From Thermoanaerobaculia bacterium (GTDB lineage: Bacteria > Acidobacteriota > Thermoanaerobaculia > UBA5066): a stretch of 64,000 bases of DNA. A program made the translations under genes and the position numbers. Shown piece by piece: positions 6,575 through 60,630 of the stretch (within the stretch, counting starts at the first letter, position 1; every line of letters begins with the position of its first letter). The stretch is from contig CAVRAY010000001.1 of the NCBI GenBank assembly GCA_963719225.1, forward strand, positions 1,216,001 through 1,280,000, written 5' to 3'. Under the pieces are notes generated by a model that made no database searches, was not told the DNA's origin, and saw only the letters and a program-made list of their open reading frames with translations.

Positions 6575-7390
6575 GTGCTGGTGGTCTTCACGGACCTGGA
6601 CGGGACTCTCCTCGAGGAGGACGGTTCGCTCTCCGAGGACGCGCGTGCGGCCGTGGGCGCCCTTTCGGCCGCGGGGATTCCCGTCGTTCCGCTCACGAGC
6701 AAAACGCGGCTCGAGCTCGAGAGCTGGATCGCGGTCCTCGATGCCGGAGGCGCCGGGGCTTTCGAGAACGGCGCGGGGATTCTGACGTCGGGAGATACGA
6801 AGACGGTGATTCCGGGGACAGGAGAACGGGAGATTCTTAGAAGGAGAGAGACCGAAGTCCTGCCCGCTGCGGTCGCCGTTGGCGAGCTGCGCCTCGCCCT
6901 CGATGCGCTTCGCCGGCACACGGGCCTTTCCCTCTTCTCCTTCGAAGAAATCCCCGACGCCGAGTGGGTACGCCTCACCGGCCTCCCGCTCGACGACGCG
7001 GGCGCGGCGCGTGCGCGGGAGTTCGATCTTCCGTTCATCGTCTCCGACGGCGACGCCTCCGCGGTCTTGTCCGCGCCGCTTCCGCCGCGCGTTCGACTGG
7101 TTCGCGGCGGGCGCTTCTGGCACCTCTCGGGCCTCCACGACAAGGCAGACGCCGCGCGAAGACTTCTCGAGCTCCTCCGCCCGTCCCGGACGATCGGGCT
7201 CGGCGACGCGCCGAACGACGCCGCGTTCCTTCGGATCATGGATCATCCCGTCCTCGTCCCGAAGAAGGCGGGAGTCGACGAAACGTTGCGCGCCGCCCTT
7301 CCCCGCGCTGGCGTCGCGCCGGCCCCCGGAGGCGCGGGCTGGAGCGCGGCCGTGCGCGCTCTCGTTCCCGCGGAAAGGATGGGTGCGTGA
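6575..7390 (+). CDS. Mannosyl/glucosyl-3-phosphoglycerate phosphatase (HAD IIB, YedP/MpgP-like)
   Basis: FTDLDGTLL, TSKT, ENG, GGRFWH, GLGDAPND motifs. GGAGG RBS at 6561 precedes GTG 6575. Confidence 0.88.
   Translation: MLVVFTDLDGTLLEEDGSLSEDARAAVGALSAAGIPVVPLTSKTRLELESWIAVLDAGGAGAFENGAGILTSGDTKTVIPGTGEREILRRRETEVLPAAVAVGELRLALDALRRHTGLSLFSFEEIPDAEWVRLTGLPLDDAGAARAREFDLPFIVSDGDASAVLSAPLPPRVRLVRGGRFWHLSGLHDKADAARRLLELLRPSRTIGLGDAPNDAAFLRIMDHPVLVPKKAGVDETLRAALPRAGVAPAPGGAGWSAAVRALVPAERMGA
6828..6955. repeat. Convergent motif pair 1 (GGGAGATTCTTAGAAGGAGAGAG 6828-6850; CTCTTCTCCTTCGAAGAAATCCCC 6932-6955)
   Basis: Near-complementary AT-rich arms inside the phosphatase CDS; cores 107 bp apart. 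Confidence 0.8.
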
Positions 7391-7391
7391 G

Positions 7392-8684
7392 ATGACCCTG
7401 ATCGCGAGCCCCGAGCTCGATGCCGGCGTGATGACGCTCCTCAAGAATCTCGGCCGCGTGGACCTCCTGGTCGGGATCCCGTCGTTCAACAACGCCCGAA
7501 CGATTGGGCACGTCGTACGCGCCGTCGCGGCGGGCCTCGCCCGCCACTTCCCCGAGGCGAAGACGGTTCTCGTGAACAGCGACGGCGGCTCGACGGACGG
7601 GACACGCGACGTGGTGGTGAAGACGGAGCTCGGCGACCTCACCGAGATCCTCGTGGACGCGGTTCCGTCCTCGCCCCTTTCGCGCATCGTGACGCCGTAC
7701 TCCGGGCTGCCGGGAAAGGGGAGCGCGCTCCGCACGATCTTCCGCATCGCCGCCGAGCTGGAGGCCTCCGCGTGCTGCGTCGTCGACAGCGACCTGCGCA
7801 GCATCACGCCGGAATGGGTGGAGCTCCTCTTGACCCCCGTTCTCGACCACGGGTACGAGTTCGTCGCGCCCCTGTACGCGCGGCACCGGTACGACGGCAC
7901 GATCACGAACACGATCGTGTATCCGCTCACGCGCGCGCTCTACGGGCACCGCGTGCGTCAGCCCATCGGCGGAGATTTCGGGTTCTCGGGCAGACTCGCG
8001 AGCCGGTTCCTCGAGTACGAGGGCTGGGAAGGCCCCGTCGCGAGGTACGGCATCGACATCTTCATGACGACGACGGCGCTCGCCGAGAACCACCGGGCGT
8101 GCCAGTCCTTCCTCGGCGCGAAGCTCCACGATCCGAAGGACCCGGGAGCGGACCTTCAGGACATGCTCGTCCAGGTCGTCTCGACCCTCTTCGACCTGAT
8201 GGGACGCTACTCGGACGTCTGGAAAGGAGTCAAAGGCTCCCAGGACCTCCGCACCTTCGGCCTGCCGTACGCGGTCGGACTGGAGCCGGTGCCCGTCAAG
8301 ATCGACCGGCTGGTCTCGCTCTTCCGACAGGGCGCGGCCGAGCTTCCTCCCGTCTGGAAGAGCTTCCTCGCCGAAGACGTCTTGCGCGGCATCCAGGAAG
8401 CCGCCGCGCGCGTCCCGCCCTCTCTTTCCGACGAGCTCTTCGTGCGGATCGTCTACGACGCCGCGGCGGGGTACACCCGGAAGAGCCTGCCGAGGGAAAC
8501 GCTCATCCGGTCCCTGATCCCGCTTTACCTCGGCAAGGTGGCGACGTTCGTGGAAGAGACGCGCGAGGCCGAGGCTGCGGAGGCCGAAGCGCGGCTCGAG
8601 ACCCTCGCGCGCGTCTACGAGAGCGAGAAGGCGTCTATCGTCCTGGCCTGGGACACGAAGAAGAAAGAACAGGCGAACCCCTAA
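7392..8684 (+). CDS. GT-A/GT2 glycosyltransferase, mannosylglycerate/glucosylglycerate synthase-like
   Basis: GIPSFNNARTI, NSDGGSTDGT, GKGSA, VDSDLRS, RQPIGGDFG, YGIDI. ATG 7392 lies just after the upstream stop. Confidence 0.8.
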   Translation: MTLIASPELDAGVMTLLKNLGRVDLLVGIPSFNNARTIGHVVRAVAAGLARHFPEAKTVLVNSDGGSTDGTRDVVVKTELGDLTEILVDAVPSSPLSRIVTPYSGLPGKGSALRTIFRIAAELEASACCVVDSDLRSITPEWVELLLTPVLDHGYEFVAPLYARHRYDGTITNTIVYPLTRALYGHRVRQPIGGDFGFSGRLASRFLEYEGWEGPVARYGIDIFMTTTALAENHRACQSFLGAKLHDPKDPGADLQDMLVQVVSTLFDLMGRYSDVWKGVKGSQDLRTFGLPYAVGLEPVPVKIDRLVSLFRQGAAELPPVWKSFLAEDVLRGIQEAAARVPPSLSDELFVRIVYDAAAGYTRKSLPRETLIRSLIPLYLGKVATFVEETREAEAAEAEARLETLARVYESEKASIVLAWDTKKKEQANP

Positions 8685-8696
8685 AGGAGGTCCGTG

Positions 8697-9377
8697 ATGC
8701 TCGAGAACCTCGGAAGGCAGATCGGCGACGCGTTTCTGAGACTGGGGGACGCCTTCCTCTCGGTCATCCCCGCGTTCGTGGTCCTCGTGGGCGCCCTCCT
8801 CGTCGGACTCATCGTGGGGGTCCTCATCCGGCTCGCGCTGAACCTCGTCTTCCGGATGGCGCGCGGAGGCGACTCGAGCCCGCTCCTGCGCGCCGCGGGA
8901 TTGAAGACCGCTCCCTCCGCCCTGGCGGCGGGTATCTCGTTCTGGGCGGCCGTCCTCGTGGCGCTCGCGGTGGGCGTGAACGCCCTCGAACCGGGAGCTC
9001 TCCGGAACGTGCTGGCGGACATCGTCGCGTTCCTGCCCCGCATCCTGACGTCCGCGCTCATCGTCCTCCTCGGGTTCGGTCTGGCCGCCCTGGCGCGCCG
9101 GAGCGTTCTCCTGGCAGCCGTCAACTCGGGCCTGCCATGGGCGCGAGCGGGCTCGCGTCTCGTCCACGCCGCCGTTCTCGTCTTCTTCGTGGCCATGGCG
9201 CTCGACAACCTCGGCGTGGCCCGCTCGATCCTCGTCGCGGCTTTCTCGATCGTGGCGGGAGGCTTCGTCCTCGCGCTCGCCCTTGCCTTCGGCCTCGGCG
9301 CGCGCGACCTCGCGAAGGGCTATCTCGAGAAGAGGCTCCGCGCGGAAGAGGAGGAGAGCGGCATCCATCACGTCTGA
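8697..9377 (+). CDS. Membrane protein with MscS-associated TM-helix repeats (CmpX-like)
   Basis: Multiple TM helices, FLPRILTS, ALAFGLGARDLA C-terminal motif; AAGGAG RBS. Confidence 0.7.
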   Translation: MLENLGRQIGDAFLRLGDAFLSVIPAFVVLVGALLVGLIVGVLIRLALNLVFRMARGGDSSPLLRAAGLKTAPSALAAGISFWAAVLVALAVGVNALEPGALRNVLADIVAFLPRILTSALIVLLGFGLAALARRSVLLAAVNSGLPWARAGSRLVHAAVLVFFVAMALDNLGVARSILVAAFSIVAGGFVLALALAFGLGARDLAKGYLEKRLRAEEEESGIHHV

Positions 9378-9410
9378 GCGCCAGAGCCGCGCGCTTCGGT
9401 CCTTTGGGCG

Positions 9411-10631: not shown

Positions 10632-10687
10632 TTCACCCGAACATATCAGCCCGCGGACCGCTGCGCGGTCTAAACTTCTTCCCCCCT

Positions 10688-28464: not shown

Positions 28465-30567
28465 ATGCGCAGCCTCCGCCTTCGTGCCCCCGCTGCCTTC
28501 GTCGCCTCCGCCGTCCTCGCGGGCTGTGTCACGTTCGGTTCCGAGAAGGGACCGCCGAAAGGCACGTATCGCGAGCGCCTGATCGGGTACGCCGCTCTTC
28601 TGCGAATGGAGGACCGCCGCGCATACGATCCGCTGCTGTCGGGACGCACGGCAGCCTCTCCGGATCCCTGGCTGCGCGCCAAGACCGCGCTCGCGGTCTC
28701 CCGCCTGAAGGATACGGACGCATCCGTGTACCTGCCCGTGCTCCTGAAGGACCCAGAGGCCTCCGTGCGCCGCGCCGCCACGTTCGGAGCCGGGCTTTCG
28801 GGTGACGCCCGCCTTCTGCACTTCCTCGTTGCGGCGCTGGGCGATCCCGATGACCAGACCGCCGCGAATGCCGCCGAGGCTCTCGGGAAAATTGGCGGAA
28901 AAGACGCCACGGACGCCCTGCTCGCCGCTCTTGCAAAGCCCAGGGGCCCGCGGGCGGGGTGCGCGCTCGCGCTGTTTCGGAAGCCCGAGGCGCGAAGTGT
29001 CACGGCGTTGCTCGCCGCGTTCGGAGAAGAGGATTCTGCTCCCGAGCTCGGGCGCGCGGTCGTCTATTCACTGTCACGAAAACCAGATCCCGCGGCAGTT
29101 CCGGCGCTTCGCGCGGTGCTTAGAAGGGAAGAAGAAGGGGCGTCCCGCACGCCCGCGAGCGAGGAAGTCGCCTGGGCGGCGCGAGGTCTTGGGATCCTCG
29201 AGGATGAGGAGAGCGTCCCCGACCTCGTCCGCCTCGCGGCCAGCCGCGACATCTCGGTTGCCGTTCAGGCCCTGACCGCGCTCCATTCACTTTCTAACAA
29301 AAGTGTCTTTTCCCTTCGCGAGGAATTGACTCGCGGCGCACGGGAAATTGCTCTTCTCCGAGCAAACGATTCCCTTCCCGGAGTGGCCATCGCCGCTTTG
29401 CGCCTCCTCGGAGCGTTGCCCGACTCCCCCGCGTCGCGTGCGACGCTCGAAGAGAACCTGCTCAAGAAGGGGTGGAGAGGACAGGCGGCCCTCGTGTCTC
29501 TGACGCACCTCGACGCGGCTCGGTCGCCGGAGGCCGCTGCGGCCCGGATCGACGCGGCGGCCCTTCTCGGCGGCACCCTCGAGCTGCGACTCGGTGCCGC
29601 CGAGGCCCTGCAGTTCTTCGGAGGCGATGGTCCGCCGAAGGTTCTCGCGACGGCCCTCCTCGCCGACCGTGCCGCGCGCGTGCGCGCATCCGCCCTTTCC
29701 TCCGTTTCGAAGAAGCAATCTCCGCATCTCTCTTCCTGGCTGCTCGCCGGCTTGATCGATCACGACGCTGCGGTGCGCGATGCCGCACTCGACGCAGGGG
29801 CGCCCCTCCTCGAGAAGGGAAGCGCGGAGCTGAAGCGCGCATGGATGGCCGCGTTCGATCGCGCTTTCGAGTCCGGCGAGCCGGATTTCACCGTCGGCGC
29901 CCTCGATGCCGCGGCGGCCCGCGGCGAGGCCGGACGCGTCCTCGTGGCTGCGCACGCGAACGACCCGGACGCCGTCACGCGCGAGAAGGCGCGGCGGCTC
30001 CTCGTCGAGAAATACGGGGCCGCCAACGGCTCGTTTCGGCCGATCCCGGCCGGAACGCGGCTTTCGACCGAGGATTACGCGCGCGTCTCCCGCGCCGCGA
30101 ACGAGTCTGTTTTCGAGGCGGAGATCGCCACGGCCCGCGGCCCGATCCGGATGGAGCTTCTCGCCGAGGACGCGCCCCTCACGGTCGAGAGCTTTCGCAC
30201 GCTCGCCGCGAAGGGCTTCTTCGACGGAATGGTGATTCACCGAGTCGTGCCGGACTTCGTCGTCCAGACCGGCGACCCGCGCGGAGACGGAAGCGGCGGA
30301 CCTGGTTACGCCATCCGGGACGAGATCAACCCGGCCCGGTACACGCGCGGCGCCGTCGGAATGGCCCTCTCCGGCGCCGATACGGGCGGCTCGCAATGGT
30401 TCGTCACGCTTTCCACGCAGCTCCACCTCGACGGCGGCTACACCGTGTTCGGGCGCGTTCTCGAGGGGTGGGACGTCCTCGATCGCATCGAGCAGGACGA
30501 CCGGCTCGTGTCCGTGCGCGTGACGTCCCATCCGCGTTCGGCCCGTCCGCCCGGAGCCGTGCCGTGA
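28465..30567 (+). CDS. HEAT-repeat lipoprotein with C-terminal cyclophilin-type PPIase
   Basis: Lipobox VLAGC, HEAT repeats, HRVVPDFVVQTGDPRGDGSGGPG, GSQWF, HLDGGYTVFG. Confidence 0.9.
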   Translation: MRSLRLRAPAAFVASAVLAGCVTFGSEKGPPKGTYRERLIGYAALLRMEDRRAYDPLLSGRTAASPDPWLRAKTALAVSRLKDTDASVYLPVLLKDPEASVRRAATFGAGLSGDARLLHFLVAALGDPDDQTAANAAEALGKIGGKDATDALLAALAKPRGPRAGCALALFRKPEARSVTALLAAFGEEDSAPELGRAVVYSLSRKPDPAAVPALRAVLRREEEGASRTPASEEVAWAARGLGILEDEESVPDLVRLAASRDISVAVQALTALHSLSNKSVFSLREELTRGAREIALLRANDSLPGVAIAALRLLGALPDSPASRATLEENLLKKGWRGQAALVSLTHLDAARSPEAAAARIDAAALLGGTLELRLGAAEALQFFGGDGPPKVLATALLADRAARVRASALSSVSKKQSPHLSSWLLAGLIDHDAAVRDAALDAGAPLLEKGSAELKRAWMAAFDRAFESGEPDFTVGALDAAAARGEAGRVLVAAHANDPDAVTREKARRLLVEKYGAANGSFRPIPAGTRLSTEDYARVSRAANESVFEAEIATARGPIRMELLAEDAPLTVESFRTLAAKGFFDGMVIHRVVPDFVVQTGDPRGDGSGGPGYAIRDEINPARYTRGAVGMALSGADTGGSQWFVTLSTQLHLDGGYTVFGRVLEGWDVLDRIEQDDRLVSVRVTSHPRSARPPGAVP
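29116..29304. repeat. Convergent motif pair 2, degenerate (GTGCTTAGAAGGGAAGAAGAAG; ATTCACTTTCTAACAAAAGT)
   Basis: AT-rich arms inside the HEAT-PPIase CDS; cores 175 bp apart. Confidence 0.5.
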
Positions 30568-30737: not shown

Positions 30738-31645
30738 AAGTGTTCGTCGGCCGACCCCTCGTCGAGCCGTCCACGACCGAGCTTCTTGCGGGGCATACCG
30801 TCGTCACGGGAGACGGGAACCTCCCGCGGTCCGAGTGGCCGCTCCTGTCGGACGCCGACGCACTCCTTCCGACGCCGCGCGAGCGGATCACGGACGAGCT
30901 CCTCGCGGCCTCTCCGCGGACCCGGATCGTGGCGAGCCACTCGGTCGGGGTCGACCACATCGATCTCGAGGCGTGCCGCCGGCGCGGCATCCTCGTCACC
31001 AACACGCCGGACGTCCTCACCGAGGCGACGGCGGACCTCGCCTGGGCGCTGATCCTGGCGGTCGCGCGGCGGCTGGGCGAGGGCGAGGCGCTCGCGCGCT
31101 CGGGGACGTGGGACGGCTGGAAACCCCGGGAGCTTCTCGGCATCTCCCTCTCCGGGCGCACGCTGGGCATCTACGGCATGGGCCGTATCGGGCGGGCGGT
31201 GGCGAGGCGCGGCGAGGCGTTCGGAATGGCGGTCGTGGCCTTCGGCAGGAGTCGGAGTGAAAAGGACCTGGAAGAATTCCTTTCGAATGTGGATGTGCTG
31301 TCGATCCACACGCCTTTGACCGAGGAGACGCGCGGAAGGTTCGGAGAGAAAGAGATCCTTCGAATGAAAGAGGGGGCGATCCTCATCAACACCGCGCGGG
31401 GCCCGATCGTGGACGAGGAGGCACTCGTCGCGGCCCTTCGTTCGAGGCATCTTCTGGGCGCGGGTCTCGACGTCTACGAAAAAGAGCCCGCAATCCATCC
31501 CGGGCTGGTCTCGCTGCCGAACGTCGTTCTCCTCCCGCATCTCGGCTCGGCCACGTTCGAGACGCGCCTCGCCATGGCGCGCCTCGCGTGCGAGGAGATC
31601 GCGCGCTTCGCGCGCGGCGAGCCGCCGCTGCACCCGGTTCCGTAG
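30734..31645 (+). CDS. D-isomer 2-hydroxyacid dehydrogenase (glyoxylate reductase/D-glycerate dehydrogenase)
   Basis: GVDHID, NTPDVLTEATAD, GMGRIG, INTARG, GLDVYEKEP, PHLGSAT. Confidence 0.92.
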   Translation: MKVFVGRPLVEPSTTELLAGHTVVTGDGNLPRSEWPLLSDADALLPTPRERITDELLAASPRTRIVASHSVGVDHIDLEACRRRGILVTNTPDVLTEATADLAWALILAVARRLGEGEALARSGTWDGWKPRELLGISLSGRTLGIYGMGRIGRAVARRGEAFGMAVVAFGRSRSEKDLEEFLSNVDVLSIHTPLTEETRGRFGEKEILRMKEGAILINTARGPIVDEEALVAALRSRHLLGAGLDVYEKEPAIHPGLVSLPNVVLLPHLGSATFETRLAMARLACEEIARFARGEPPLHPVP

Positions 31646-31700
31646 GCCCGGAGCTTCGCTCGCGAGCGCCTCGCTCATTCACCCCTCTAAGAAAATCTTC
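31271..31700. repeat. Motif cluster 3: forward copies 31271-31293 and 31346-31375; reverse intergenic copy 31674-31700
   Basis: Reverse complement of 31674-31700 is GAAGATTTTCTTAGAGGGGTGAATGAG. Confidence 0.6.
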
Positions 31701-36607: not shown

Positions 36608-37588
36608 GTGAGCCGCTCGAAGCGCTTGACGAGGAGCCGGGCGACTCGGGCGCTTCTATTGATTCTGATTGTCGCTCCGGCAGTCGCGTGGCGCGCGAAG
36701 GCCGAGGAGAGCTCGTTGTCCATTCCCATCGGCACGCTCCGAGCCGGTGATGTCGTGGTCCTCGGGAAGCAGTTTTTCTTAGAAGGTGAATTGGAAGGGA
36801 GCGCCGTGCTCGTCGGAGGAAGCACGGCGGTCGTGTCGGGCCGCATTCATCGCGACCTCATCCTCCTCGGCGCGAACGCGACGGTTCGCCGCGGCGCCCG
36901 CATCGATGGCGACGTGCTTTCCGTCGGCGGTTCTCTCACCTTCGAAGAAATCCCCGGTGGTCACTCTTCGGACGTGACGACGAGCACGACCACGGCGCAA
37001 GTGGGGGGGCACGTCCGCACGATCACCGCTCTCGAGGCGGCCGTCGTCTCCGAGCTCGAGACCTCTCCGCTGACGTCCGGCAGGACCTCGCCGCTCGTTC
37101 TTTCCTTCCGCCTGTTTCTGCTCTTCTGCTGGCTCGTCGTCTCCATCGGACTCCTCTATCTCGCCCCCCGCCAGGTCCTTCGTGCGGCGGACGGGTCGCG
37201 CGGCCGCCTCGCGTTTCTCGCCGCGCTCGGCGCGACCGCGGTCTTGACCGCGCTCCTCCTCGCGGCCTTCGCTCTGTCGATCCTCCCGGCTCGTCTCGCG
37301 CTCGCCCTCGGCGTGGCGCTCCTCCTCGCGCTCGCCGCCGCGAAGGTCTTCGGTCTCGCGGCGCTCTTCGTCGTCCTGGGCCGCCGCGCGACGCCCCGCG
37401 CCGTGCGCGGCGATCTCCTGTTCGGAGACCCGGCGGCGCTCGCGGCCGGCCTTCTCCTCCTCGGCCTCGCGTCTCTCGTGCCCGTCGCCGGCCCTCTCGT
37501 CTGGAGTCTCGCGTCGCTCGCGGGAATCGGCGTCGCTCTCGCGGCTGTCGTGTCGCGCGAGCCGCGCCTCGTGCTCGCCGCCTCCTGA
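36608..37588 (+). CDS. Membrane protein with N-terminal polymer-forming (bactofilin-like) beta-helix repeats
   Basis: Signal peptide, [23 protein letters not shown] repeats, C-terminal TM bundle. Confidence 0.7.
36766..36955. repeat. Convergent motif pair 4 (GAAGCAGTTTTTCTTAGAAGGTGAATT; TCTCACCTTCGAAGAAATCCCC)
   Basis: Cores 165 bp apart; the 17-mer at 36939-36955 is identical to 6939-6955. Confidence 0.8.
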
Positions 37589-45076: not shown

Positions 45077-46045
45077 ATGTCGCGTTTTCGCAAGGTCCTC
45101 CTCGCGCTCGTCCTGCTCCTCGCCGCGGTCGGCGCGGCGGCGGGACTCCTGTTCTGGAAGAGGCCCATCGCGACGCTCGCATGGCTGGGCAGGTGCCGCC
45201 TCGAGGCCACCGGCTTCACGAAGCTGAAGGTGGCGTCCGCGGCGGGGGTCCAGACCGTCTTCCGCGGCGGCTCCGGGCCGGTCGTCGTCCTTCTCCACGG
45301 CGCCGGCGACCAGGCCGGCGCCTGGTCACGGGTGGCACCTTCACTCTCGAAGAGCTTCACGCTGATCCTCCCGGATCTCGCGGGCCACGGCGAGAGTGCA
45401 CCGGCGCGCGGCCCGCTGCCGCTCGGAGTGCTCCTCCAGGGCCTCGACGGGATCCTCGAGCGCCAGGTTCCGGCCGGCAAGGTCACGCTCGTCGGGAACT
45501 CTCTCGGCGCCTGGATGGCGGCGCTGTGGGCGAAGGAGCATCCCACGCGCGTGGAGCACCTCGTCTTCGTGAACGGAGGGCCGATCCGCGGGGAGCGCAC
45601 GGATCTGACGCTCATGCCGCGCAACCGGACCCAGGCCGACGCGCTTCTCTACGCGCTTCGGGACCCGACGAGCCCGGTCGTTCCGACCTTCGTCGTGGAC
45701 GACATCATCCGCGTTTCGAACGAGGGGCCGATCGCCCGCCTCGCGGCGGACGCGAAAGGGATGGAGACCTACCTGCTCGACGGGAAGCTCGATACGTTCA
45801 CGATTCCCGTCGACCTTCTCTGGGGGGCTTCCGACAAGCTGCTCCCGGTCGCGTGGGCCGAGCGCCTCCAGGCGCAGCTGCCCACGGCGCGCCTGACGAA
45901 GATCGACCGGTGCGGCCACGTGCCTCAGCAGGAATGCCCCGAGGCGTTCTCGTCGGCTCTCTCGAAGATCCTGAAGGACCCGCTTCCGGCTCCTACGGTC
46001 TCCTCTCCGCCCGCCAAGCCCGTCAGAAGGCCGGCAGCTCCGTGA
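45077..46045 (+). CDS. Alpha/beta hydrolase with N-terminal signal/TM
   Basis: LLHG, DLAGHG, GNSLG, WGASD, GHVP. Confidence 0.88.
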   Translation: MSRFRKVLLALVLLLAAVGAAAGLLFWKRPIATLAWLGRCRLEATGFTKLKVASAAGVQTVFRGGSGPVVVLLHGAGDQAGAWSRVAPSLSKSFTLILPDLAGHGESAPARGPLPLGVLLQGLDGILERQVPAGKVTLVGNSLGAWMAALWAKEHPTRVEHLVFVNGGPIRGERTDLTLMPRNRTQADALLYALRDPTSPVVPTFVVDDIIRVSNEGPIARLAADAKGMETYLLDGKLDTFTIPVDLLWGASDKLLPVAWAERLQAQLPTARLTKIDRCGHVPQQECPEAFSSALSKILKDPLPAPTVSSPPAKPVRRPAAP

Positions 46046-48534
46046 TCCATGGCGACGTCCTCGGCGAGCGTGCGCGCCTGACGCCTTCCAAGACGGTGCT
46101 CGTCGAGGTCGCGACCGGGCGACGGTTTTCGTACGCCCAGATGGATGCCCGCGCGGCGGCGGCGGCTCGCGCGCTGACCGAAGGTTTCGGCGTAAAGAAA
46201 GGCGACCGCGTCGCGCTGCTCGCGCACAACCGCGTCGAATTTCTCGACGTGTTCTTCGCGGCGGCGAAAGCAGGATTCGTGCTCGTACCACTCAGCACGC
46301 GCCTCACCACGAACGAGCTCGCGGGAATCCTGGAAGACGCGCAACCGAAAGCGCTCATCTATGGGGCAGAGTTCGAAGAGACCGTTGAAGATTTGCTTAG
46401 AAGGGTAAAGGGATGCGAGGGCGTCGCCCTCGACGCTCCGGCGGAGCCCACGCACGGACGCCTCTCCACCTTCGAAGAAATCTCCTCTTCTCTTCCAGCG
46501 GCGCCTCCTGGCGCCGCTGCAGAATCTTCATCCTCTTCTCGTCCCGCGCCCGAAGATCTCCTCGCGCTCCTCTACACCTCGGGCACGACCGGCAAGCCGA
46601 AGGGCGTGATGGTGCCGCACCGGATGGTGGGGTGGAACGCGGTGAACACCGCCGTCTCCTGGCAGCTCCGCGAGGACGACGTCTCGCCGGTCTTCACGCC
46701 GCTCTACCACGCGGGCGGGCTGGGCGCGTTCCTGACTCCGATCTTCGCGATCGGCGGAACGATCGTGCTGCACGCCGGTTTCGACGTGGAGGAAGTCCTC
46801 GCGACGATCGGGCGGGAGCGCTGCACCGTCGTGCTGGGCGTTCCGACGATCTTCCGGATGCTCCGCGAGGCGAAAGGGTTCGCGGGAGCGGATTTTTCGA
46901 GCGTCCGCTGGTTCGCCAGCGGGGGAGCCCCCCTGCCCCTCGACCTGATCGAGGCGTGGCAGGCGCGGGGCGTCGTCCTGAAGCAGGGCTACGGCCTGAC
47001 CGAGGTGGGCGTGAACTGTTTCGCGATGACGGCCGAAGAATCCGTGAGAAAAGCCGGCTCGATCGGCAAGCCCCTGATGTTCACCGAGGCGCGGCTCCGA
47101 CTCGAGGACGGCCGCGAGGCGGGCACGGACGAGGTCGGGGAGCTCCTTCTCCGCGGGCCGCACGTCTGCCAGGGCTACTTTCGGAACCCCGAGGCCACGG
47201 CCGCCGCTCTCGACGCGGGCGGCTGGTTTCACACGGGCGATCTCGCCAAGCGCGACGCGGACGGCTTCTACACGATCGCAGGCCGCAGGAAGGACATGTT
47301 CATCTCGGGCGGCGTCAACGTCTATCCGGCCGAGGTGGAAGCAGTGCTCTTCCAGCACGCGGCAGTGAAGGACGTCGCGGTCGTCGGCGTGCCGGACGAC
47401 AAGTGGGGAGAGGTCGGCGTCGCATTCGTCGTGAGAAGAGAAGACGAAAAGAAAGACGAAGAGAAGATTTCCATGAAAGGGGAAGAGGGGACGGAGAAAA
47501 GTGAAGAGAAGATTTCTTTGAAGGGTGAAGAGGGGCATGGCGCCGCGGTGGCGGCGGAGCTCGCCGGGTTCGTCGCGTCCCGCCTCGCGAAATACAAGGT
47601 ACCGCGGGAATTCGTCTTCGTCGACGCCCTCCCACGCACGCCCTACGGGAAAGTCGTGAAGGGAGAGCTCCTCTCTTCTTACCTTTCTAAGAAATCTTCC
47701 TTTTCCTCTTCCTCTTCTCCTTCTCCCGTGCTGGCCCACCGCGTCGACGGAGAAGGCCCTCCGCTCCTGCTCCTGAACGGCGGCATGATGTCGATGTCCG
47801 CCTGGGAGCCCGTCGCCAGGCGGCTCGCTGAGCGCCATCGCGTCATTCGATGCGACTTCCGGGGACAGCTCCTCTCGCCCGGCATTCCACCCGCGCGCAT
47901 GGAAGGTCACGCGGATGATCTCGTGCGACTCCTCGATGCACTTTCGATTCCCCGCGTGGACGTCGTCGCCGCCTCGTTCGGCGCTTACGTCGGACTCCTC
48001 CTCGCAGCGCTCCATCCCGGACGCGTCGCCTCCGTCCTGGCCGCCACGGTCACGGATGCGGTCGACGGGAGCCTGGGCGAGGGGAGCGAGTCTTTGGCGG
48101 CCGCCGTGCGGGAGGCCGTCTCGGGCGGCGACCGGACGAAGGTCTACGACCACATCGTGTCGATCGCGTACTCGCCCGCGTGGCAGGAATCCCATCGGGA
48201 CGAGCTCTCGGCGCGCCGGGGGCAGGTGGGGCTTCTGCCGCAGGAGTGGTTCGCCGGCCTGGACGGCCTGCTCCGGGCGCTCGTCACCGTGGACCTCAAG
48301 CCGTACCTTTCGAAGATCACCTGCCCGGTTCTCGTCATCGCTGCGGAGCACGATTCAGCCATGCCGCTCGAGCGCACCGAGGCGGTTGCCGGGGCGATTC
48401 GGGGCGCGGACTTCGTGGTCGTGCCCGGCTCCGGGCACGCCGTGAGCGTGGAAAGGGAGGACGAGTTTCTCCTCATCGCGGAAAGGTTCCTCGAGAGGGT
48501 CGCGCGGCCGACCCACGCGACGGACGCGCGGTGA
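46042..48534 (+). CDS. Acyl-CoA synthetase (AMP-binding) fused to C-terminal alpha/beta hydrolase
   Basis: YTSGTTGKPKG, QGYGLTE, HTGD, GRRKDMFISGG, PRTPYGK, then LLNGG, DFRGQ, AASFG, SGH. Confidence 0.9.
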   Translation: MIHGDVLGERARLTPSKTVLVEVATGRRFSYAQMDARAAAAARALTEGFGVKKGDRVALLAHNRVEFLDVFFAAAKAGFVLVPLSTRLTTNELAGILEDAQPKALIYGAEFEETVEDLLRRVKGCEGVALDAPAEPTHGRLSTFEEISSSLPAAPPGAAAESSSSSRPAPEDLLALLYTSGTTGKPKGVMVPHRMVGWNAVNTAVSWQLREDDVSPVFTPLYHAGGLGAFLTPIFAIGGTIVLHAGFDVEEVLATIGRERCTVVLGVPTIFRMLREAKGFAGADFSSVRWFASGGAPLPLDLIEAWQARGVVLKQGYGLTEVGVNCFAMTAEESVRKAGSIGKPLMFTEARLRLEDGREAGTDEVGELLLRGPHVCQGYFRNPEATAAALDAGGWFHTGDLAKRDADGFYTIAGRRKDMFISGGVNVYPAEVEAVLFQHAAVKDVAVVGVPDDKWGEVGVAFVVRREDEKKDEEKISMKGEEGTEKSEEKISLKGEEGHGAAVAAELAGFVASRLAKYKVPREFVFVDALPRTPYGKVVKGELLSSYLSKKSSFSSSSSPSPVLAHRVDGEGPPLLLLNGGMMSMSAWEPVARRLAERHRVIRCDFRGQLLSPGIPPARMEGHADDLVRLLDALSIPRVDVVAASFGAYVGLLLAALHPGRVASVLAATVTDAVDGSLGEGSESLAAAVREAVSGGDRTKVYDHIVSIAYSPAWQESHRDELSARRGQVGLLPQEWFAGLDGLLRALVTVDLKPYLSKITCPVLVIAAEHDSAMPLERTEAVAGAIRGADFVVVPGSGHAVSVEREDEFLLIAERFLERVARPTHATDAR
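46387..46490. repeat. Convergent motif pair 5 (GAAGATTTGCTTAGAAGGGTAAAG; CTCCACCTTCGAAGAAATCTCCTCTTC)
   Basis: Cores 77 bp apart within the ligase CDS. Confidence 0.8.
47458..47727. repeat. Motif cluster 6: two tandem forward copies (45-bp period) plus a reverse copy with pyrimidine tail
   Basis: 47458-47490, 47503-47535, and 47673-47700 (CTCTTCTTACCTTTCTAAGAAATCTTCC). Confidence 0.85.
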
Positions 48535-51478: not shown

Positions 51479-51487
51479 CTTCGGGCG

Positions 51488-53170: not shown

Positions 53171-54949
53171 ATGCGCTGGTCCCAGTCGTTTCTCGTGACT
53201 CTCCGCGAGGTGCCCGGCGACGCCGAGGTCGTCTCGCATCAGCTCCTTTACCGCGCCGGGCTCATCCACAAGCTCGCGGCGGGCATCTATTCGTTCACGC
53301 CGTTCGGGTTCCGGTCGCTCAAGAAGATGATCGACATCGTGCGCGAGGAGATGGACTCCACCGGCGCGATGGAGGTCGACCTGCCCATCCTGCAGCCGAA
53401 GGAGCTGTGGGTGGAATCCGGCCGCTGGCAGCGCTACGTGGACGACGGAATCCTCTTTCACCTGGAGGACCGCAAGGGCGGCGAGTTCGCACTCGCGCCG
53501 ACGGCCGAGGAGGCCGTCACCGACATGGTGCGGCGCTCCGTCACGTCCTGGCGGCAGCTCCCGTTCAACCTGTACCAGATCCGCACGAAGTTCCGCGACG
53601 AGATCCGCCCACGCTTCGGTCTCCTGCGCGGCCGCGAGTTCCTCATGAAGGACGCGTACTCGTTCGACGTGGACCAGAAGGGCCTCGACGTGCATTACCG
53701 GAAGATGGACGCAGCGTACCGGCGCATCTTCGAACGCTGCAACCTCGAGTACGCCCTCGTGGAAGCCGACTCGGGCGCCATCGGCGGCTCCGCCTCGCAG
53801 GAGTTCATGGTCGTGGCGGACACGGGCGAGGACGCGCTCGTCTTCTCCGACGCGGGCGACTACGGCGCGAACGTGGAGAAGGCCGTCACGGCCCCGCTCC
53901 CCGAGCCGTGGGCGGGGGAGGAGGCGAAACCCTTCGGCTTGGCGAACGCGCCGACGCCGGGTCTTTATACCTGTGAGGACCAGGCGAAGCACTTCGGGAC
54001 GACGACGTCGCGCATCGTCAAGACGATGATCTTCGAATGGGTAAGAGGCGAGGACGAGGCCGGGATCGCCGCGGTTCTGATCCGTGGCGATCTCGACATC
54101 CAGGAAGTCAAGCTGCCGAAGGCGCTCGGCGTTTCGCACGTCAAGTTCGTTTCCGAAGAGATTCTCAGAATGGTATCGGGCACGCGCCCCGGTTTCGTCG
54201 GGCCGCTCGGTCTTCTTCCCTTCAAAGAAAATCCGATTCCCCTCTTCGTCGACCGTTCGCTCGAGCACGCCGTCAACGTGTGGTGCGGAGCGAACAAAGA
54301 CGGCCTCCACCATTCGAACGTCTCGATCTCGCGCGACGTCATGTCGCTGCCCGCGTTTTCCGGTGTCGTCGAGGTCGCGACCGCGCGCGAGGGCGATCCC
54401 TCGCCCACGGGCAAAGGCACGCTTCGGATCCGGCGCGGCATCGAGGTGGGCCACATCTTCAAGCTCGGCACGAAGTACTCCGAGGCGATGAAATGCGAGG
54501 TCGCCGACCAGGCCCAGAAGATGGTGCCTCTCACGATGGGCTGCTACGGGCTCGGCCTCGGCCGCACGGTGGCGGCGGCCATCGAGCAGAATCACGACGA
54601 GCTCGGCATCATCTGGCCGGTGCCGCTCGCGCCGTTTGCGTGCGTCGTCGCGGCGCTCCAGCGCGACGCTCCCGTCGTCGAGGCGGCGAGTGCGCTCTAC
54701 GAGGGCCTCAAGGCCGCGGGCGTGGAGGTTTTCTACGACGACCGCGACGAGAGGCCGGGCGTGAAGTTCAAGGACCTCGACCTCATCGGCTTCCCCGTGC
54801 GTGTCGTCGTGGGCGGCAAGGGCCTCGCGAAGGGCGTCGTCGAGGTCTCCACGCGCCGCGAGAGGAAGGCCGCCGAGATCGCGCCGGACCGCGTCGTGGA
54901 GCTCGTCACGAAGACGCTCGCGGCGGGGGCGAAGACGCTGGTGGGTTGA
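53171..54949 (+). CDS. proS: Proline--tRNA ligase (with INS editing domain)
   Basis: SHQLL, ESGRW, KFRDEIRPRFGLLRGREFLMKDAYSF, GIEVGHIFKLG, GCYG, DDR. Confidence 0.97.
   Translation: MRWSQSFLVTLREVPGDAEVVSHQLLYRAGLIHKLAAGIYSFTPFGFRSLKKMIDIVREEMDSTGAMEVDLPILQPKELWVESGRWQRYVDDGILFHLEDRKGGEFALAPTAEEAVTDMVRRSVTSWRQLPFNLYQIRTKFRDEIRPRFGLLRGREFLMKDAYSFDVDQKGLDVHYRKMDAAYRRIFERCNLEYALVEADSGAIGGSASQEFMVVADTGEDALVFSDAGDYGANVEKAVTAPLPEPWAGEEAKPFGLANAPTPGLYTCEDQAKHFGTTTSRIVKTMIFEWVRGEDEAGIAAVLIRGDLDIQEVKLPKALGVSHVKFVSEEILRMVSGTRPGFVGPLGLLPFKENPIPLFVDRSLEHAVNVWCGANKDGLHHSNVSISRDVMSLPAFSGVVEVATAREGDPSPTGKGTLRIRRGIEVGHIFKLGTKYSEAMKCEVADQAQKMVPLTMGCYGLGLGRTVAAAIEQNHDELGIIWPVPLAPFACVVAALQRDAPVVEAASALYEGLKAAGVEVFYDDRDERPGVKFKDLDLIGFPVRVVVGGKGLAKGVVEVSTRRERKAAEIAPDRVVELVTKTLAAGAKTLVG
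54025..54234. repeat. Motif cluster 7 inside proS (54025-54048 and 54155-54175 forward; 54211-54234 reverse)
   Basis: GAAGAGATTCTCAGAATGGTA and TCTTCTTCCCTTCAAAGAAAATCC; cores 59 bp apart. Confidence 0.6.
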
Positions 54950-54983: not shown

Positions 54984-55184
54984 GTGCCTACGAATCTCGC
55001 GATCGACGACGGCCTTCTCGCCGAGGCGCTCAAGATCGGCGGCCTCAAGACGAAGAGGGAGACGGTCAATCAGGCGCTCGAAGACTTCATCCGGGCCCGA
55101 AAGCGGCTTAGCGCCCTGAAGCGTCTCGGGACGATCGAGTTCGCTCAGCGTTGGAACCACAAGGCGGATCGCCGGCGCCGGTGA
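54984..55184 (+). CDS. vapB: VapB-family antitoxin
   Basis: MPTNLAIDDGLL...KTKRETVNQAL; GGAGG RBS; overlaps the toxin gene. Confidence 0.85.
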   Translation: MPTNLAIDDGLLAEALKIGGLKTKRETVNQALEDFIRARKRLSALKRLGTIEFAQRWNHKADRRRR

Positions 55185-55594: not shown

Positions 55595-55764
55595 CGACCG
55601 CGGGCCTTTCGCTCACGGAGGATCGCCTTTCGGAAGCCGTCTCGGTCTCCACGGCGTGCCTCGAGTCCGGCACGGACGAGGACGCGGATACGGCGCTGAG
55701 AGGCGCGTTTCACGGATTTCGTCTCGAAATCGTGCTCCCCGCTCTCGTCGCTCGCCTTCGTTAG
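55591..55764 (+). CDS. Short hypothetical ORF or gene remnant (57 aa)
   Basis: ATGA-coupled to vapC; no recognisable motif. Confidence 0.3.
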   Translation: MTTAGLSLTEDRLSEAVSVSTACLESGTDEDADTALRGAFHGFRLEIVLPALVARLR

Positions 55765-55833
55765 TACGTCCGCATCAATTCGGGGAGGGGGGCGCCATCC
55801 TAGAATCGCCGCGGGACTACGAAAGGAACACGC

Positions 55834-58089: not shown

Positions 58090-58132
58090 TCCCGGGGCAC
58101 GCGGTTCGCCCGTCCGCTACGATGCGGGCCGC

Positions 58133-59479
58133 GTGGACATCCTCACGACAGGGTGCGGCCTCCTCGCCGCCTGGGCGGCCTTGCCCGCGCTCGATGCTTT
58201 CCTGAGGTGGCGGCGCCTCACGGCGCCGGGGGGCGCCCGAGCCCCCGAGGGCGCTCGCGCGCCCGGGAAGATCCTCGCTGTGATCCCGTCGCGCGCCGAG
58301 GGCGCGCGGGTGGGGGATCTCGCGGAGGATTTGAGGAGAGAAGGGGAGAGAAGAGAAGAGAAGATTTCTTCGAAGGTGAATGAGTCAGGGGATGCCGGCG
58401 ACGCCGCGCCGAAGGCTTCTCGCTCGGCCGTGGAGGTCTTGGTGCTTCTGGACGGCCCTGACCCAGACGCCGAGGCGCGACTCGCGCGCGAGGGCGTCAA
58501 ACACCTTTCTAAGAAATCCCCGGGCCCTTCCAAAGGCCACGCCCTCGCTTTTCTGGCAGAAAGCCTACGGGAGCGTCTGAACTCATATGACTTCATCCTC
58601 GTCTTCGACGCCGACATGCGCGTCGCCGACGGTTTCTTTTCCGGCCTGCGCGTGCCCGAAGGGGCCGAGGCCTTTCAGTTGCCGGTTCGCCCTTCGGGCG
58701 CTCCGGGGCCGGGAGCCCCGCGCGTCGAGGCTCTCTCTCTCGCGGAGGCACGACTGGATGACCTCGCGCGGGACGCGGACGGCCTGCCCGTCCGTCTGCG
58801 CGGAAAGGCCATGGGGTTCACCCCGAGCGCTTTCCGCTTCGGCCCGGCGGCGGCCACGCGGACGACGGCCGAGGATTCGGAGGCCACGCTCGCCCTCCTC
58901 GCGAGGGGTGTGACGGTGCACGCGCTCGACGGGCCCTGGGCGTTCGACGAGCCGTCCTCCGACACGGGCGCGATGGGCCGCTCCCGAGCGCGATGGTTCG
59001 GGGGGCACCTGAAGCTCCTCGCAACGGGGTTCGCCGACCTCCTGCGGCTCGCGGCGAGAAGCCCGAAGGGCGCGTTCGTTCTCGCGTGCGATCTCTGGCT
59101 GAGGCCGAGGATCTTTCTGCTCGGGACCCTCGCGTTTCTTGCGATCGGATCGGATCTGCTCATGGTGGTTTTTTCTTCGAGTGGCGCGTGGTCCGCCGCG
59201 GCGCGGGCAGGCGGCGAAGCCGCGACCGGGGGTGCAGCCGCGTCGGCGCAACCCTTCGCGCTCCTCGCTTGCCTCTTCGCTCTTTCACTTCTAGGAAAAT
59301 CTGCGTTGCTTTTCGAGTGGCTCTCGCTTGCCGCGCTTCGCCGGCACATCGGCTATCCCCCCGAGGTGCCCGCGGTCACCCTCGCCGATCTTCTCTCCTC
59401 GCTCTCGATGTGGGCGCGCGCGGCGGGGCGTGGTCTTCTCGCGCCGTCTGCTTGGCACCGGGCACGGCCGTCCGCGTGA
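58133..59479 (+). CDS. GT2 family glycosyltransferase (membrane)
   Basis: VIPS, SKGHAL, VFDAD, TAEDSE, RARWFGG, C-terminal TMs. Confidence 0.8.
   Translation: MDILTTGCGLLAAWAALPALDAFLRWRRLTAPGGARAPEGARAPGKILAVIPSRAEGARVGDLAEDLRREGERREEKISSKVNESGDAGDAAPKASRSAVEVLVLLDGPDPDAEARLAREGVKHLSKKSPGPSKGHALAFLAESLRERLNSYDFILVFDADMRVADGFFSGLRVPEGAEAFQLPVRPSGAPGPGAPRVEALSLAEARLDDLARDADGLPVRLRGKAMGFTPSAFRFGPAAATRTTAEDSEATLALLARGVTVHALDGPWAFDEPSSDTGAMGRSRARWFGGHLKLLATGFADLLRLAARSPKGAFVLACDLWLRPRIFLLGTLAFLAIGSDLLMVVFSSSGAWSAAARAGGEAATGGAAASAQPFALLACLFALSLLGKSALLFEWLSLAALRRHIGYPPEVPAVTLADLLSSLSMWARAAGRGLLAPSAWHRARPSA
58355..58521. repeat. Convergent motif pair 8 (GAAGAGAAGATTTCTTCGAAGGTGAATGAG; CACCTTTCTAAGAAATCCCC)
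   Basis: Cores 141 bp apart; the 16-mer at 58503-58518 is identical to 47681-47696. Confidence 0.85.
59167..59303. repeat. Convergent motif pair 9 (GGTTTTTTCTTCGAGTGG; TTTCACTTCTAGGAAAATCTG)
   Basis: Cores 116 bp apart, in the TM region of the GT2. Confidence 0.55.
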
Positions 59480-60630
59480 AAGCCGTCCTTCTGGTGCCCC
59501 GCCTTCCCGGAACGGGCTTCACGGGAGACCGCTTGCGGGCGGAGCTCCATCTTCAGGCGCTCGCGTCGGCGGGTTACGAGACGGCCCTGGTCGGCGGGGT
59601 CGCGGGAGAAGAGGAGATTCTTCGAGTGAAGGACGCGGCGGCCGTCCATTCCGTGCGGCTCCGTCGCACCCTGCTTCCGGTTGGGCTCGCGTCGGCGGCG
59701 GTTTCCGGCGAGCCGCTCCAATCCGCCCTTTTCAAAGGCGCTTTCGGACCTTGCCTTCGTGACGCCGCCCGCAATGCGGATCTCTTGGTCTGCCTCCTCC
59801 TTCCTCGCCTGCTCGCTCATCTCCGCTCATTCCCGCCCCTCCCTCGCGTGGTGGACTTCGTCGACGCCCTCGCCGAAGCGGCGCGTCAGGCGGCGCGAAA
59901 CGACCCGTCGCCCTGGCGTCGGGCGTACTGGATGGTCGAAGCCTCCCGCCTCGCGGTCGCCGAAGCTCGGGCGGCGCGGGGCGCAGCGGCTCTCCTCGCG
60001 ACGACCCCCTTCGACGCCGCGCATCTCCCGGCCGGCACGCGAGCCGTGGCAAATGGCGTGGCGCTTCTGCCCCCCGGAACCTCGGAGCGCGGGCCCCTCG
60101 TGGCCTTCACCGGGCGCCTCATGTACCGTCCGAATCGCCTGGCGGCGCGACGACTGATCCGCGACATCTGGCCGCGCGTCAGACGCGCCGTGCCGGACGC
60201 CCGTCTTCTCGTGGCCGGCGCCGACGCGCCCGCCGAGCTCCGCGCCTCGAACGGGCGGGAGGGCGTCGAAGTCGTGAGCCCGGTCCCCGCCATGGCCGAG
60301 CTCCTGAGGAGGGCGCGCGTCGTCGCGCTTCCCGTGGACCTGGGAACGGGCACGCCGAACAAGCTCTTCGAGGCGTTCGAAGCGGGCGCGGCCGTCGTGG
60401 CCTCCGCCGGAATCATCGCGCGCGCCAGCTCCCCGGATGCGCGCGCTCCGGCGCGCGCCGCCGCCACGGACGAGGAGTTCGCGCGCGAGATTGCGGACTA
60501 TCTCGGAGATCCCGGCCGCGCCGCACGCGACGGCGAGGCCGGTCGCGCCTTCGTCGAGGCGCACGCGGACCGCCGCGCCTCGGTCGCGGCTCTCGCGGCG
60601 GCCTACCGCGCGGCCGTGGAGGCCGCGTGA
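59476..60630 (+). CDS. GT4 family glycosyltransferase
   Basis: TGDRLR, DFVDAL, NGV, FTGRLMYRPN, GTPNKLFEA. Carries an unpaired motif copy at 59608-59632. Confidence 0.85.
   Translation: MKAVLLVPRLPGTGFTGDRLRAELHLQALASAGYETALVGGVAGEEEILRVKDAAAVHSVRLRRTLLPVGLASAAVSGEPLQSALFKGAFGPCLRDAARNADLLVCLLLPRLLAHLRSFPPLPRVVDFVDALAEAARQAARNDPSPWRRAYWMVEASRLAVAEARAARGAAALLATTPFDAAHLPAGTRAVANGVALLPPGTSERGPLVAFTGRLMYRPNRLAARRLIRDIWPRVRRAVPDARLLVAGADAPAELRASNGREGVEVVSPVPAMAELLRRARVVALPVDLGTGTPNKLFEAFEAGAAVVASAGIIARASSPDARAPARAAATDEEFAREIADYLGDPGRAARDGEAGRAFVEAHADRRASVAALAAAYRAAVEAA

Follow-up and report, generated by a model that had tools for sequence, protein, structure and literature searches.

Several families of short repeated DNA words have been described in bacteria, and REP, USS and Chi each led to a dedicated protein machine. 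USS, DUS and the cyanobacterial HIP1 are short lineage-specific iterated words, present in all reading frames, found at orthologous places and scarce in new DNA; for USS and DUS the density is around one per kb. Rickettsia palindromic elements (RPE) are palindromic non-coding repeats which lie in frame within protein genes, without stop codons, and whose orthologous sites are conserved. REPINs are defined as REP doublets (PMC3337134; bioRxiv 10.1101/2022.05.22.493013), and MITEs have been reviewed elsewhere (PMC10969869, PMC2229807).

The distribution of a short AT-rich motif was analyzed in a 64-kb stretch of DNA from a Thermoanaerobaculia bacterium (hereafter the window), in the rest of its GC-rich genome and in related genomes. 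The repeated unit, or arm, is about 25-35 nt long and has a constant core of 12-14 nt. From 5' to 3' it is composed of a variable purine tract, GATTTCTTAGAAGG and TGAAKAGGG, and a 9-bp quasi-palindrome, TTCT-T-AGAA, can be read by eye off the copies. The purine tract (0-60 nt) forms the outer boundary, which is less sharp than the inner one. With at most one mismatch, GATTTCTTNGAAGG matches the window 7 times when 0.05 matches are expected, and none of 100 shuffles reaches 7. Using a 26-nt weight matrix, trained on the same genome's own copies that it then counts, we identified 14 copies with scores of at least 14 bits, rising to 16 when the threshold is lowered to 10 bits, close to the "about 20 copies" of an earlier sequence-only reading; the motif is truly over-represented in the window. 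The same words do recur in unrelated genes, as that reading had noted: at 6939 and 36939, at 46467 and (as reverse complement) 58362, and at 47681 and 58503. The arms of the window are as follows, R-arms being those with purines on the top strand.

6828..6853, + strand: R-arm, 17.3 bits, in a HAD-type phosphatase gene, within an 18-aa insertion relative to sister genera
6930..6955, - strand: its Y-arm partner, 37.1 bits, same phosphatase gene, reads FSFEEIP; lies over native codons, length unchanged
29111..29136, + strand: weak R-arm, 5.6 bits, HEAT-repeat/cyclophilin gene
29281..29306, - strand: Y-arm, 15.3 bits; orthologous copies in G011, G017, G001, G013 and G006
31350..31375, + strand: degenerate R-arm, 11.7 bits, close to the 3' end of a 2-hydroxyacid dehydrogenase gene
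31674..31699, - strand: intergenic Y-arm, 20.2 bits; the nearer R-arm and half the interior (~60 bp), retained by G011, G017 and G006, are absent
36770..36795, + strand: R-arm, 27.0 bits, over native codons of a polymer-forming (bactofilin-like) membrane protein gene
36930..36955, - strand: Y-arm, 33.7 bits, same bactofilin-like gene, reads LTFEEIPG; a small insertion relative to sister genera
46388..46413, + strand: R-arm variant with one added base (GATTTGCTTAGAAGG), 21.6 bits, acyl-CoA ligase gene, reads DLLRRVK
46460..46485, - strand: Y-arm, 36.7 bits, acyl-CoA ligase gene, reads STFEEIS
47463..47488, + strand: additional tandem R-arm, 23.6 bits, within a 45-bp duplication absent from relatives' metagenome contigs
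47508..47533, + strand: R-arm, 36.4 bits, reads KISLKGEEG, in a ~30-aa insertion ahead of the ligase C-terminal subdomain
47674..47699, - strand: Y-arm, 39.9 bits, end of the ligase, reads SYLSKKSS; its pyrimidine tract encodes a Ser-rich linker between ligase and alpha/beta hydrolase
54156..54181, + strand: weak R-arm, 5.5 bits, proS
54210..54235, - strand: Y-arm, 21.1 bits, proS
58360..58385, + strand: R-arm of 38.8 bits with a 30-nt purine tract ahead of it, inside ORF 58133-59479 (no match in a Pfam search) or at its start
58496..58521, - strand: its Y-arm partner, 28.0 bits
59278..59303, - strand: lone degenerate copy, 13.8 bits, partner not recovered

Five strong pairs are present (6831/6952, 36773/36952, 46391/46482, 47511/47696 and 58363/58518), together with three in which one arm is weak, at 5.5-11.7 bits (29114/29303, 31353/31696 and 54159/54232). 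Nine clusters had been proposed. With spacing taken as the G-to-G distance minus 14, eight of them are found at identical values (107, 175, 329, 165, 77, 171, 59 and 141); the ninth (116 bp, towards 59632) was not recovered, a lone copy of 13.8 bits lying at 59300.

Across the 4.75-Mb genome, GATTTCTTNGAAGG has 93 exact matches and 248 with at most one mismatch. At 18 bits or more the matrix counts 599 copies, versus about 32 in a reversed-sequence control, itself inflated because the motif is partly mirror-symmetric. Between 14 and 40 bits the scores are spread evenly, degenerate copies grading without a break into strong ones, and overall the family amounts to about 300 bipartite elements, or some 600 arms. 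Orientation is far from random: among neighbours less than 1 kb apart there are 167 convergent, 61 same-strand and 26 divergent pairs, so that the convergent bias claimed from the window holds genome-wide. Of 457 strong copies, about 85% are accompanied by a convergent partner (4 bits or more), and about 8% by one on the divergent side. Partners face each other at 50-460 bp, with spacings down to 51 bp and only 23-40 bp between cores in the shortest units; neither helical nor mod-3 periodicity was found in the spacing of arms. The elements themselves are spaced in a Poisson-like manner (CV 1.06), at an overall density of about one copy per 8 kb. Per 100 kb there are 19.2 copies between 0.8 and 3.1 Mb of C1, a region whose centre is the terminus as inferred from skew; the region around the origin has 7.4 and C2, the second replicon, 4.6. 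According to crude in-house gene calls, 432 of the 599 copies (72%) are in ORFs and 167 are intergenic. Every reading frame and both strands are used, which confirms the earlier remark on differing frames, and intergenic copies occur as well; placement is indifferent to genes, frames and direction of transcription.

Only the arms are repeated and conserved. Searched against the rest of the genome, the interiors gave no significant match elsewhere, and among 160 interiors compared, likeness was confined to the 15 members of a family of kinase paralogues and to one duplicated element. The idea that the pairs enclose ordinary host sequence stands for the coding pairs examined: in each of the four set against outgroups, the arms enclose native protein sequence, and about half of these arms lie over existing codons with length unchanged. 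It does not stand for intergenic pairs, whose interiors are unique non-host filler. That arms are read in frame was verified for the ligase, phosphatase and bactofilin-like genes. In ten of ten orthologues of the ligase, the essential C-terminal subdomain with the catalytic lysine region is bracketed by arms and lies in functional orientation. Nine convergent pairs of G000 are 0.45-4 kb apart; they contain ordinary genes or none, and no transposase-like gene.

Results concerning sequence constraint indicate that the nucleic acid, and not the protein, is under selection or drive, as the sequence-only reading had supposed: arms depart from the word only where it would bring in a stop codon, and orthologous sites are near-invariant despite diverging third positions. 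At position N, 70% of intergenic copies have A. In the two frames in which this base would create TAG or TAA, C or T stands there instead, and in the third frame TGA is avoided. The ligase cores are near-invariant over 10 genus orthologues, third codon positions included. Between G000 and G017, identity is 0.91 in cores, 0.73 at third codon positions and 0.55-0.6 in ungapped flanks; against the mean of all coding positions (0.86) the core excess is modest, and concerns one close pair. Intergenic arms are kept far better than their interiors. Plain transposition does not explain the overlay of codons without change of length; selection or drive on the motif fits better.

Partner arms show no covariation: their identity at variable positions is the same as for shuffled partners (39% versus 38% at N), and their tract lengths are uncorrelated. 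Each arm is constrained independently of its partner. This bears on an RNA-level reading, in which purine and pyrimidine arms would pair over long distances in transcripts, the stems serving for instance as RNase III sites or in regulation. The geometry is suitable, since the transcript of either strand has the purine arm before the pyrimidine arm and the consensus arms are complementary across ~23 nt; the purine arm moreover holds a strong Shine-Dalgarno-like AAGGTGA, the complement of which resembles the 16S 3' end. However, beyond the conserved core, Watson-Crick pairing is just 0.25-0.5, G·U and A·C are equally frequent in the sense strand of 97 coding pairs (371 versus 366), structure in the interiors is unremarkable (mean z -0.4 to -0.6), and a search of the window against Rfam matched no family. 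Intergenic pairs lie behind convergent genes in only 2 of 31 cases, no enrichment, which also speaks against terminators. The long-range mRNA or ssDNA stems suggested earlier are thus disfavoured, and we regard an RNA-level element as extremely unlikely. A role of the arms as crossover sites of a site-specific recombinase, switching about 300 loci by flipping or removing 50-460 bp, appears very unlikely as well. It would account for ~25-nt inverted repeats bracketing segments in the size range of known invertons, for the sharper inner boundary and for the indel hot spots in interiors and flanks, but none of the nine pairs common to G000 and G017 has an inverted interior. In-silico inversion leaves 39 of 95 host ORFs open, versus 52% of 2850 length- and phase-matched controls, and one of 15 in the kinase family; the constant orientation of the ligase subdomain points the same way, and the 23-40 bp between cores in the shortest units are insufficient for dsDNA synapsis. 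With no inverted state seen between these two species and no selection for a readable inverted frame, recoding invertons are disfavoured.

The motif is lineage-specific, as had been proposed: exact copies number 39-159 in each of the 20 genus genomes searched (18 of 18 and 10 of 10 in the sets used), versus 0-2 per genome in 146 other genomes of the class. The outgroups were 12 other genomes of the order and 140 others of the class, six being from the same family. Orthologous arms were found in five other species, yet about a quarter of the arms differ between two species ~86% identical. Arms are gained by small insertion or codon overwriting, tandem-duplicated, and lost by deletion. In G013, a single arm came as a 52-bp insertion, and a G013-specific arm resembles other arms over 24-38 nt only; a whole element of ~190 bp is present in G017 alone among five genomes compared. 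Half-element indels occur, interiors and flanks being indel hot spots, and one whole-element duplicate is 81% identical over 113 bp. No target-site duplication was evident at the gains and losses examined, where the outer boundary is the variable purine tract. Two motif-poor 20-kb pieces of C1 have no or patchy counterparts in five genus genomes and are accessory DNA; a motif-rich piece is syntenic in all five.

We consider the arms to be, with a probability of roughly 40%, a genus-specific family of short interspersed sites, REP/REPIN-like in kind, which a putative sequence-specific protein recognises as DNA. Each arm would be an oriented recognition site for one trans-acting protein, perhaps a recombinase, a transposase-like enzyme or another DNA-tracking enzyme, whose action, or the selection it imposes, would hold the core constant. 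Arms enter singly or as whole units via small insertions, or overwrite codons, and within genes only stop-free forms survive; recently acquired DNA would hold few arms because they build up slowly in long-resident DNA. A cognate enzyme was sought in the genus, and none was found. The arms may also be paired protein-binding sites, as the sequence-only reading proposed. Several of these observations would suit an uptake or self-recognition signal of the USS/DUS or Chi kind, read by a DNA-uptake or processing machine and accumulating in resident DNA by drive or selection, chiefly via point changes at tolerant places: the word is genus-specific, uses all frames and avoids stops, overlays native codons at unchanged length in several genes, is conserved at orthologous sites, is sparse in the accessory regions tested and the second replicon, and grades continuously into degenerate copies. 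We nevertheless judge it unlikely. About 85% of copies follow the convergent-pair rule, and we know of no described uptake or Chi sequence which requires such pairs; one copy per ~8 kb is sparse beside the usual one per kb of USS and DUS; several gains are insertions of 50-190 bp, not substitutions; and there is no Chi-like replication-oriented skew, because the pairs are strand-symmetric. Architectural sites, where a nucleoid-associated or SMC/ParB-type protein would bind the oriented arms and act on the short segment enclosed by them, as a host-beneficial chromosome-organising signal, seem distinctly unlikely. Independent constraint, fixed orientation, placement blind to genes and transcription, and a density highest around the terminus would suit them, but the spacing of elements is Poisson-like, the helical phasing expected of a rigid dsDNA loop is lacking, spacings are as short as 51 bp, and about a quarter of the arms differ between the two species ~86% identical. 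As the two motif-poor pieces of C1 are accessory DNA, the large-scale density gradient may reflect only gene age.

A further reading is that the arms are a genus-wide "bracket" signal and not transposon ends, written into resident DNA, even over codons, by a sequence-directed process, a strand-tracking enzyme reading the convergent pairs. This is speculative and, in our judgement, unlikely. If true, it would represent a new kind of genomic self-signature, or a paired uptake or processing signal, with its own putative writer and reader proteins. A 12-14-nt AT-rich word is kept against GC pressure at about 600 places, of which hundreds are within essential genes, throughout a genus of Thermoanaerobaculia-like Acidobacteriota of uncultured type. 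If a reader protein exists, the arm is a highly specific bait which should ease its isolation. The arms add Glu/Lys-rich and Ser/Pro-rich stretches to proteins and fuse neighbouring genes; in this lineage they thus give rise to protein linkers as well as to annotation errors.

Compared with known systems, the strict rule of facing pairs is, to our knowledge, found in this form in no described uptake, Chi, REP or MITE system. With USS, DUS and HIP1 the arms share a short over-represented lineage-specific word, presence in genes in all frames, orthologous retention and scarcity in acquired DNA; they differ by an obligatory convergent arrangement of partners 50-460 bp apart, by insertional gains, by the purine tracts alongside the word and by a roughly ten-fold lower density. 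Like RPE and intragenic MITEs, they are stop-free and in frame in genes and kept at orthologous sites. Those elements, however, insert whole, with fixed length and common interior, whereas here the arms alone are common, stand on either side of host codons that were already there, and may replace codons at constant length. As to MITEs, the arms are inverted, no clear target-site duplication accompanies the gains and losses examined, and the nine convergent pairs 0.45-4 kb apart in G000 enclose no related autonomous element with the same ends. Invertons, intragenic ones included, likewise have inverted repeats bracketing 50-500 bp, some in genes, but here no inverted state was seen between G000 and G017, and there is no selection for a readable inverted frame. 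Membership of the REP-RAYT system is rejected on three grounds: no cognate RAYT, intragenic copies and unshared spacers. A Y1 transposase (RAYT/IS200, PF01797) exceeds the cut-off in only 2 of 18 genus genomes, G000 not among them, so that a cognate RAYT is absent from 16; the one weak RAYT-like ORF of G000 is missing from all 30 relatives searched, and no arm lies close to it. REPINs are extragenic and their doublets replicate as a unit with a common spacer, whereas here 72% of copies are inside genes and spacers are unique or native coding sequence; each REP is a short GC-rich palindrome forming a hairpin, which the AT-rich arm, with only a 9-bp quasi-palindrome, may not form. What the arms do share with REPINs and their RAYTs is the convergent doublet arrangement (167 versus 26 pairs; ~85% of 457 copies with a convergent partner), a copy number in the hundreds, single arms that represent decay products, and vertical persistence in the lineage.

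The distribution of the repeat was analyzed over the whole source genome (G000; 4.75 Mb, 68% GC, two contigs, C1 and C2), in which the window occupies C1:1216001-1280000. The repeat unit, or arm, has a conserved portion, GATTTCTTAGAAGG followed by TGAAKAGGG, with a purine tract of 0 to 60 nt upstream of both; copies with purines on the top strand are called R-arms and those with purines on the bottom strand Y-arms. Seven matches to GATTTCTTNGAAGG with at most one mismatch lie in the window, against 0.05 expected, and the whole genome contains 93 exact copies and 248 at the same tolerance. With a 26-nt weight matrix, which was derived from the genome's own GATTTCTTNGAAGG copies that it then counts, 599 copies reach at least 18 bits compared with about 32 in reversed sequence; partial mirror symmetry of the motif inflates this control.

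These arms obey a clear orientation rule. Neighbouring copies less than 1 kb apart are convergent in 167 cases genome-wide, divergent in 26 and on the same strand in 61. About 85% of 457 strong copies have a convergent partner (at least 4 bits, 40-500 bp away), and about 8% a partner on the other side. The distance between partners spans 51 to about 460 bp and peaks broadly at 85-110 bp, and neither a 10.5-bp (helical) nor a 3-bp (codon) periodicity was found in the pair spacing. The sequence-only reading had listed nine cluster spacings: eight were recovered at the same distances and one was not recovered. Regular placement of the elements along the chromosome was not found (coefficient of variation of the inter-element spacing, 1.06). 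At one locus of the relative G017 (L147, orthologous to window position ~31700), directly adjoining Y- and R-arms in back-to-back order make up the perfect palindrome CCTTCTAAGAAGATCTTCTTAGAAGG, with GATC at its centre.

According to gene calls made for this analysis, which are crude, 432 of the 599 copies are located in ORFs and 167 in intergenic regions; by the same calls, ORF copies are equally sense and antisense, use every frame and are evenly spread over gene length. Among intergenic copies, 70% have A as the variable base N of the arm. In the two frames in which an A would yield TAG or TAA, C or T stands there instead, and in the third frame TGA at +14..16 is avoided. This frame-specific avoidance of stops indicates that the word is imposed on coding DNA and altered no further than an open frame requires. 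Of the 31 intergenic pairs, 23 occupy tandem spacers, 6 divergent and 2 convergent ones, a background-like distribution. In the window, the acyl-CoA ligase gene carrying four arms and an alpha/beta hydrolase form a single open frame (45934-48534), as they do in two relatives (G014 and G004); the junction is a Ser-rich reading of the pyrimidine tract of a Y-arm, and in several other species the ligase stops just past the arm. The nearest named relatives of this ligase are Thermoanaerobaculia/Acidobacteria MAGs.

The family is characteristic of one genus. Counting unpublished G024, two surveys gave 39-159 exact copies in 18 of 18 and 10 of 10 genus genomes, and 0-2 in the other genomes, 12 of the order and 140 of the class (six from the same family). 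A comparable dispersed word was not found in a 600-kb sample of the sister genus (G072), where only a local cluster of a 22-bp palindrome and a cytochrome gene repeat were seen. The palindrome, AACTGATGGACGCACATCAGTT, is present in about 30 copies within 60 kb (L114-L118, G072:C1:2700-62200), which resemble a set of operators repeated across a mobile or phage-like region. Thirty-four viral contigs have one exact 18-mer match each and none has several, which we take as chance. No description of the element was found in the accessible part of the literature on the motif word, on Thermoanaerobaculia repeats and on intragenic palindromic elements.

Within the genus, constraint follows the arms. 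Between G000 and G017, codon-position identity over 119 genes is 0.92, 0.94 and 0.73 for positions 1, 2 and 3; over 31 shared arms, identity is 0.91 in the core, 0.71 in the inner part and 0.55-0.6 in the ungapped flanks. Ten genus orthologues of the ligase share the positions of the four arms and almost all of the arm nucleotides, and nearby third codon positions vary. Arms of intergenic orthologues are nearly identical despite strongly diverged interiors, and the window arms at ~29300, ~31350, ~31700, ~36770 and ~36950 were also found in five other species.

Gain, loss and duplication were also observed. Of the arms along 175 kb of synteny, 31 of 36 in G000 and 25 of 37 in G017 could be matched at the mapped position; at least one of the "absent" calls is a mapping error. 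A 52-bp insertion with one arm is present in a single relative (G013), its likeness to other arms being confined to the arm itself; among five genomes compared, an element of about 190 bp, composed of two R-arms, one Y-arm and unique filler, is specific to G017. Elsewhere a single arm plus half of the interior has been lost or gained at some loci, and arms are duplicated in tandem. One G000 arm, whole in G017, has its core split by a GC-rich insertion that bears a GAA repeat of 3 bp:

G000 C1, ortholog of G017:C30 ~480359: arm-splitting 74-bp insertion, from the G000 and G017 comparison

In metagenome contigs of four runs, the arms vary in length: there is a 45-bp skip at 47478-47524, and 76 bp are replaced at 46408-46485. 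Joints with a change of strand were not listed for these contigs, which cannot reveal rare forms.

The DNA between partner arms is unique with few exceptions; it is host sequence in the coding pairs examined and non-host filler between genes. Captured DNA was rejected as an explanation, since no significant second copy of the interiors exists elsewhere in the genome. Among 160 interiors compared, sequence is common only to 15 Ser/Thr kinase paralogues and to one duplicated intergenic element, 81% alike over 113 bp. Four coding pairs were compared with relatives outside the genus, and in all four native protein sequence fills the interior:

Acyl-CoA ligase: variable loop and conserved C-terminal subdomain, native interior
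HAD phosphatase: part of the protein, native interior
Bactofilin-like protein: part of the protein, native interior

Coding arms themselves are either small insertions (18, ~30 and ~10 aa) or length-neutral overlays of existing codons. Kinase paralogues form an array on C1 (2295917-2319758, one per ~2.7 kb), and every member carries its arm pair at 107 bp spacing in the same two places of the N-lobe; five more outside the array carry the same pair.

Copies per 100 kb amount to 19.2 in C1 0.8-3.1 Mb, 7.4 elsewhere on C1 and 4.6 on C2; judged by GC skew, replication starts near position 0 and terminates near 2.07 Mb. For two motif-poor pieces of 20 kb, counterparts in five genus genomes are absent or patchy, and a piece of C2 is shared only in part. 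Synteny with the motif-rich piece of the window is kept in five of five. The density gradient therefore probably reflects how long the DNA has resided in the lineage, as judged from three pieces poor in the motif and one rich in it, and the accessory nature of two of the former weakens an origin/terminus gradient as a structural signal. Outside the window, G000:C1:55001-63000 (L234:1-8000) contains kb-long stretches in which the GC skew is 1.00, the + strand is devoid of cytosine and the GC content is 25-73%; this is strongly C-depleted DNA or else an artefact of assembly close to the contig start.

Several functional readings were considered. Long-range RNA or ssDNA stems, suggested from the sequence alone, are contradicted by partner arms that do not covary, by their uncorrelated tract lengths and by equal numbers of sense-strand G·U (371) and A·C (366). 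Structured interiors were rejected on a slight shift only (mean z -0.4 to -0.6), and no Rfam family matched in the window. Terminators were discarded as spacers between convergent genes show no excess of intergenic pairs (2/31), and recoding invertons because none of nine pairs common to G000 and G017 is inverted and the frame stays open in only 39 of 95 ORFs after in-silico inversion, compared with 52% of controls. The 16S 3' end is canonical; there is an apparent, loose likeness between the pyrimidine arm (TCACCTTCTAAGAAATC) and the 16S 3' end/ITS junction (TCACCTCCTTTCTAAGGGATC, G000:C1:905520-905565), and the purine arm contains a strong Shine-Dalgarno-like AAGGTGA. Two genes that were considered as RAYT or as writer of the arms lie at the low-GC end of the second replicon:

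G000:C2:836026-836526: RAYT-like ORF
G000:C2:869298-869993: group II intron-type reverse transcriptase

The REP-RAYT system was rejected, the ORF being unique to G000 (0 of 30 relatives) and a Y1 transposase occurring in just 2 of 18 genus genomes, unpublished G019 included. The reverse transcriptase, the sole one and of group II intron type, has no arms nearby and was dismissed as writer. An autonomous element with the same ends was not found in G000.

The comparisons demonstrate arm-by-arm sequence constraint at the DNA level, an orientation rule and dynamics of gain, loss and duplication. We propose that a single putative trans-acting protein would read every arm as an oriented site; the spacing, which is not helically phased, and the shortness of the smallest units favour one-dimensional tracking or single-strand recognition over rigid looping. 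That the arms serve as an uptake or self-mark signal would account for the codon overlays and for their scarcity in accessory DNA but leaves the pairing unexplained, and we consider it rather unlikely. Our leading reading, to which we give a probability of roughly 0.4, is a family of REP/REPIN-like short interspersed DNA. Unlike REP/REPIN, the arms sit in genes, dispense with a RAYT and bracket native sequence; like them, they persist vertically as short interspersed DNA.
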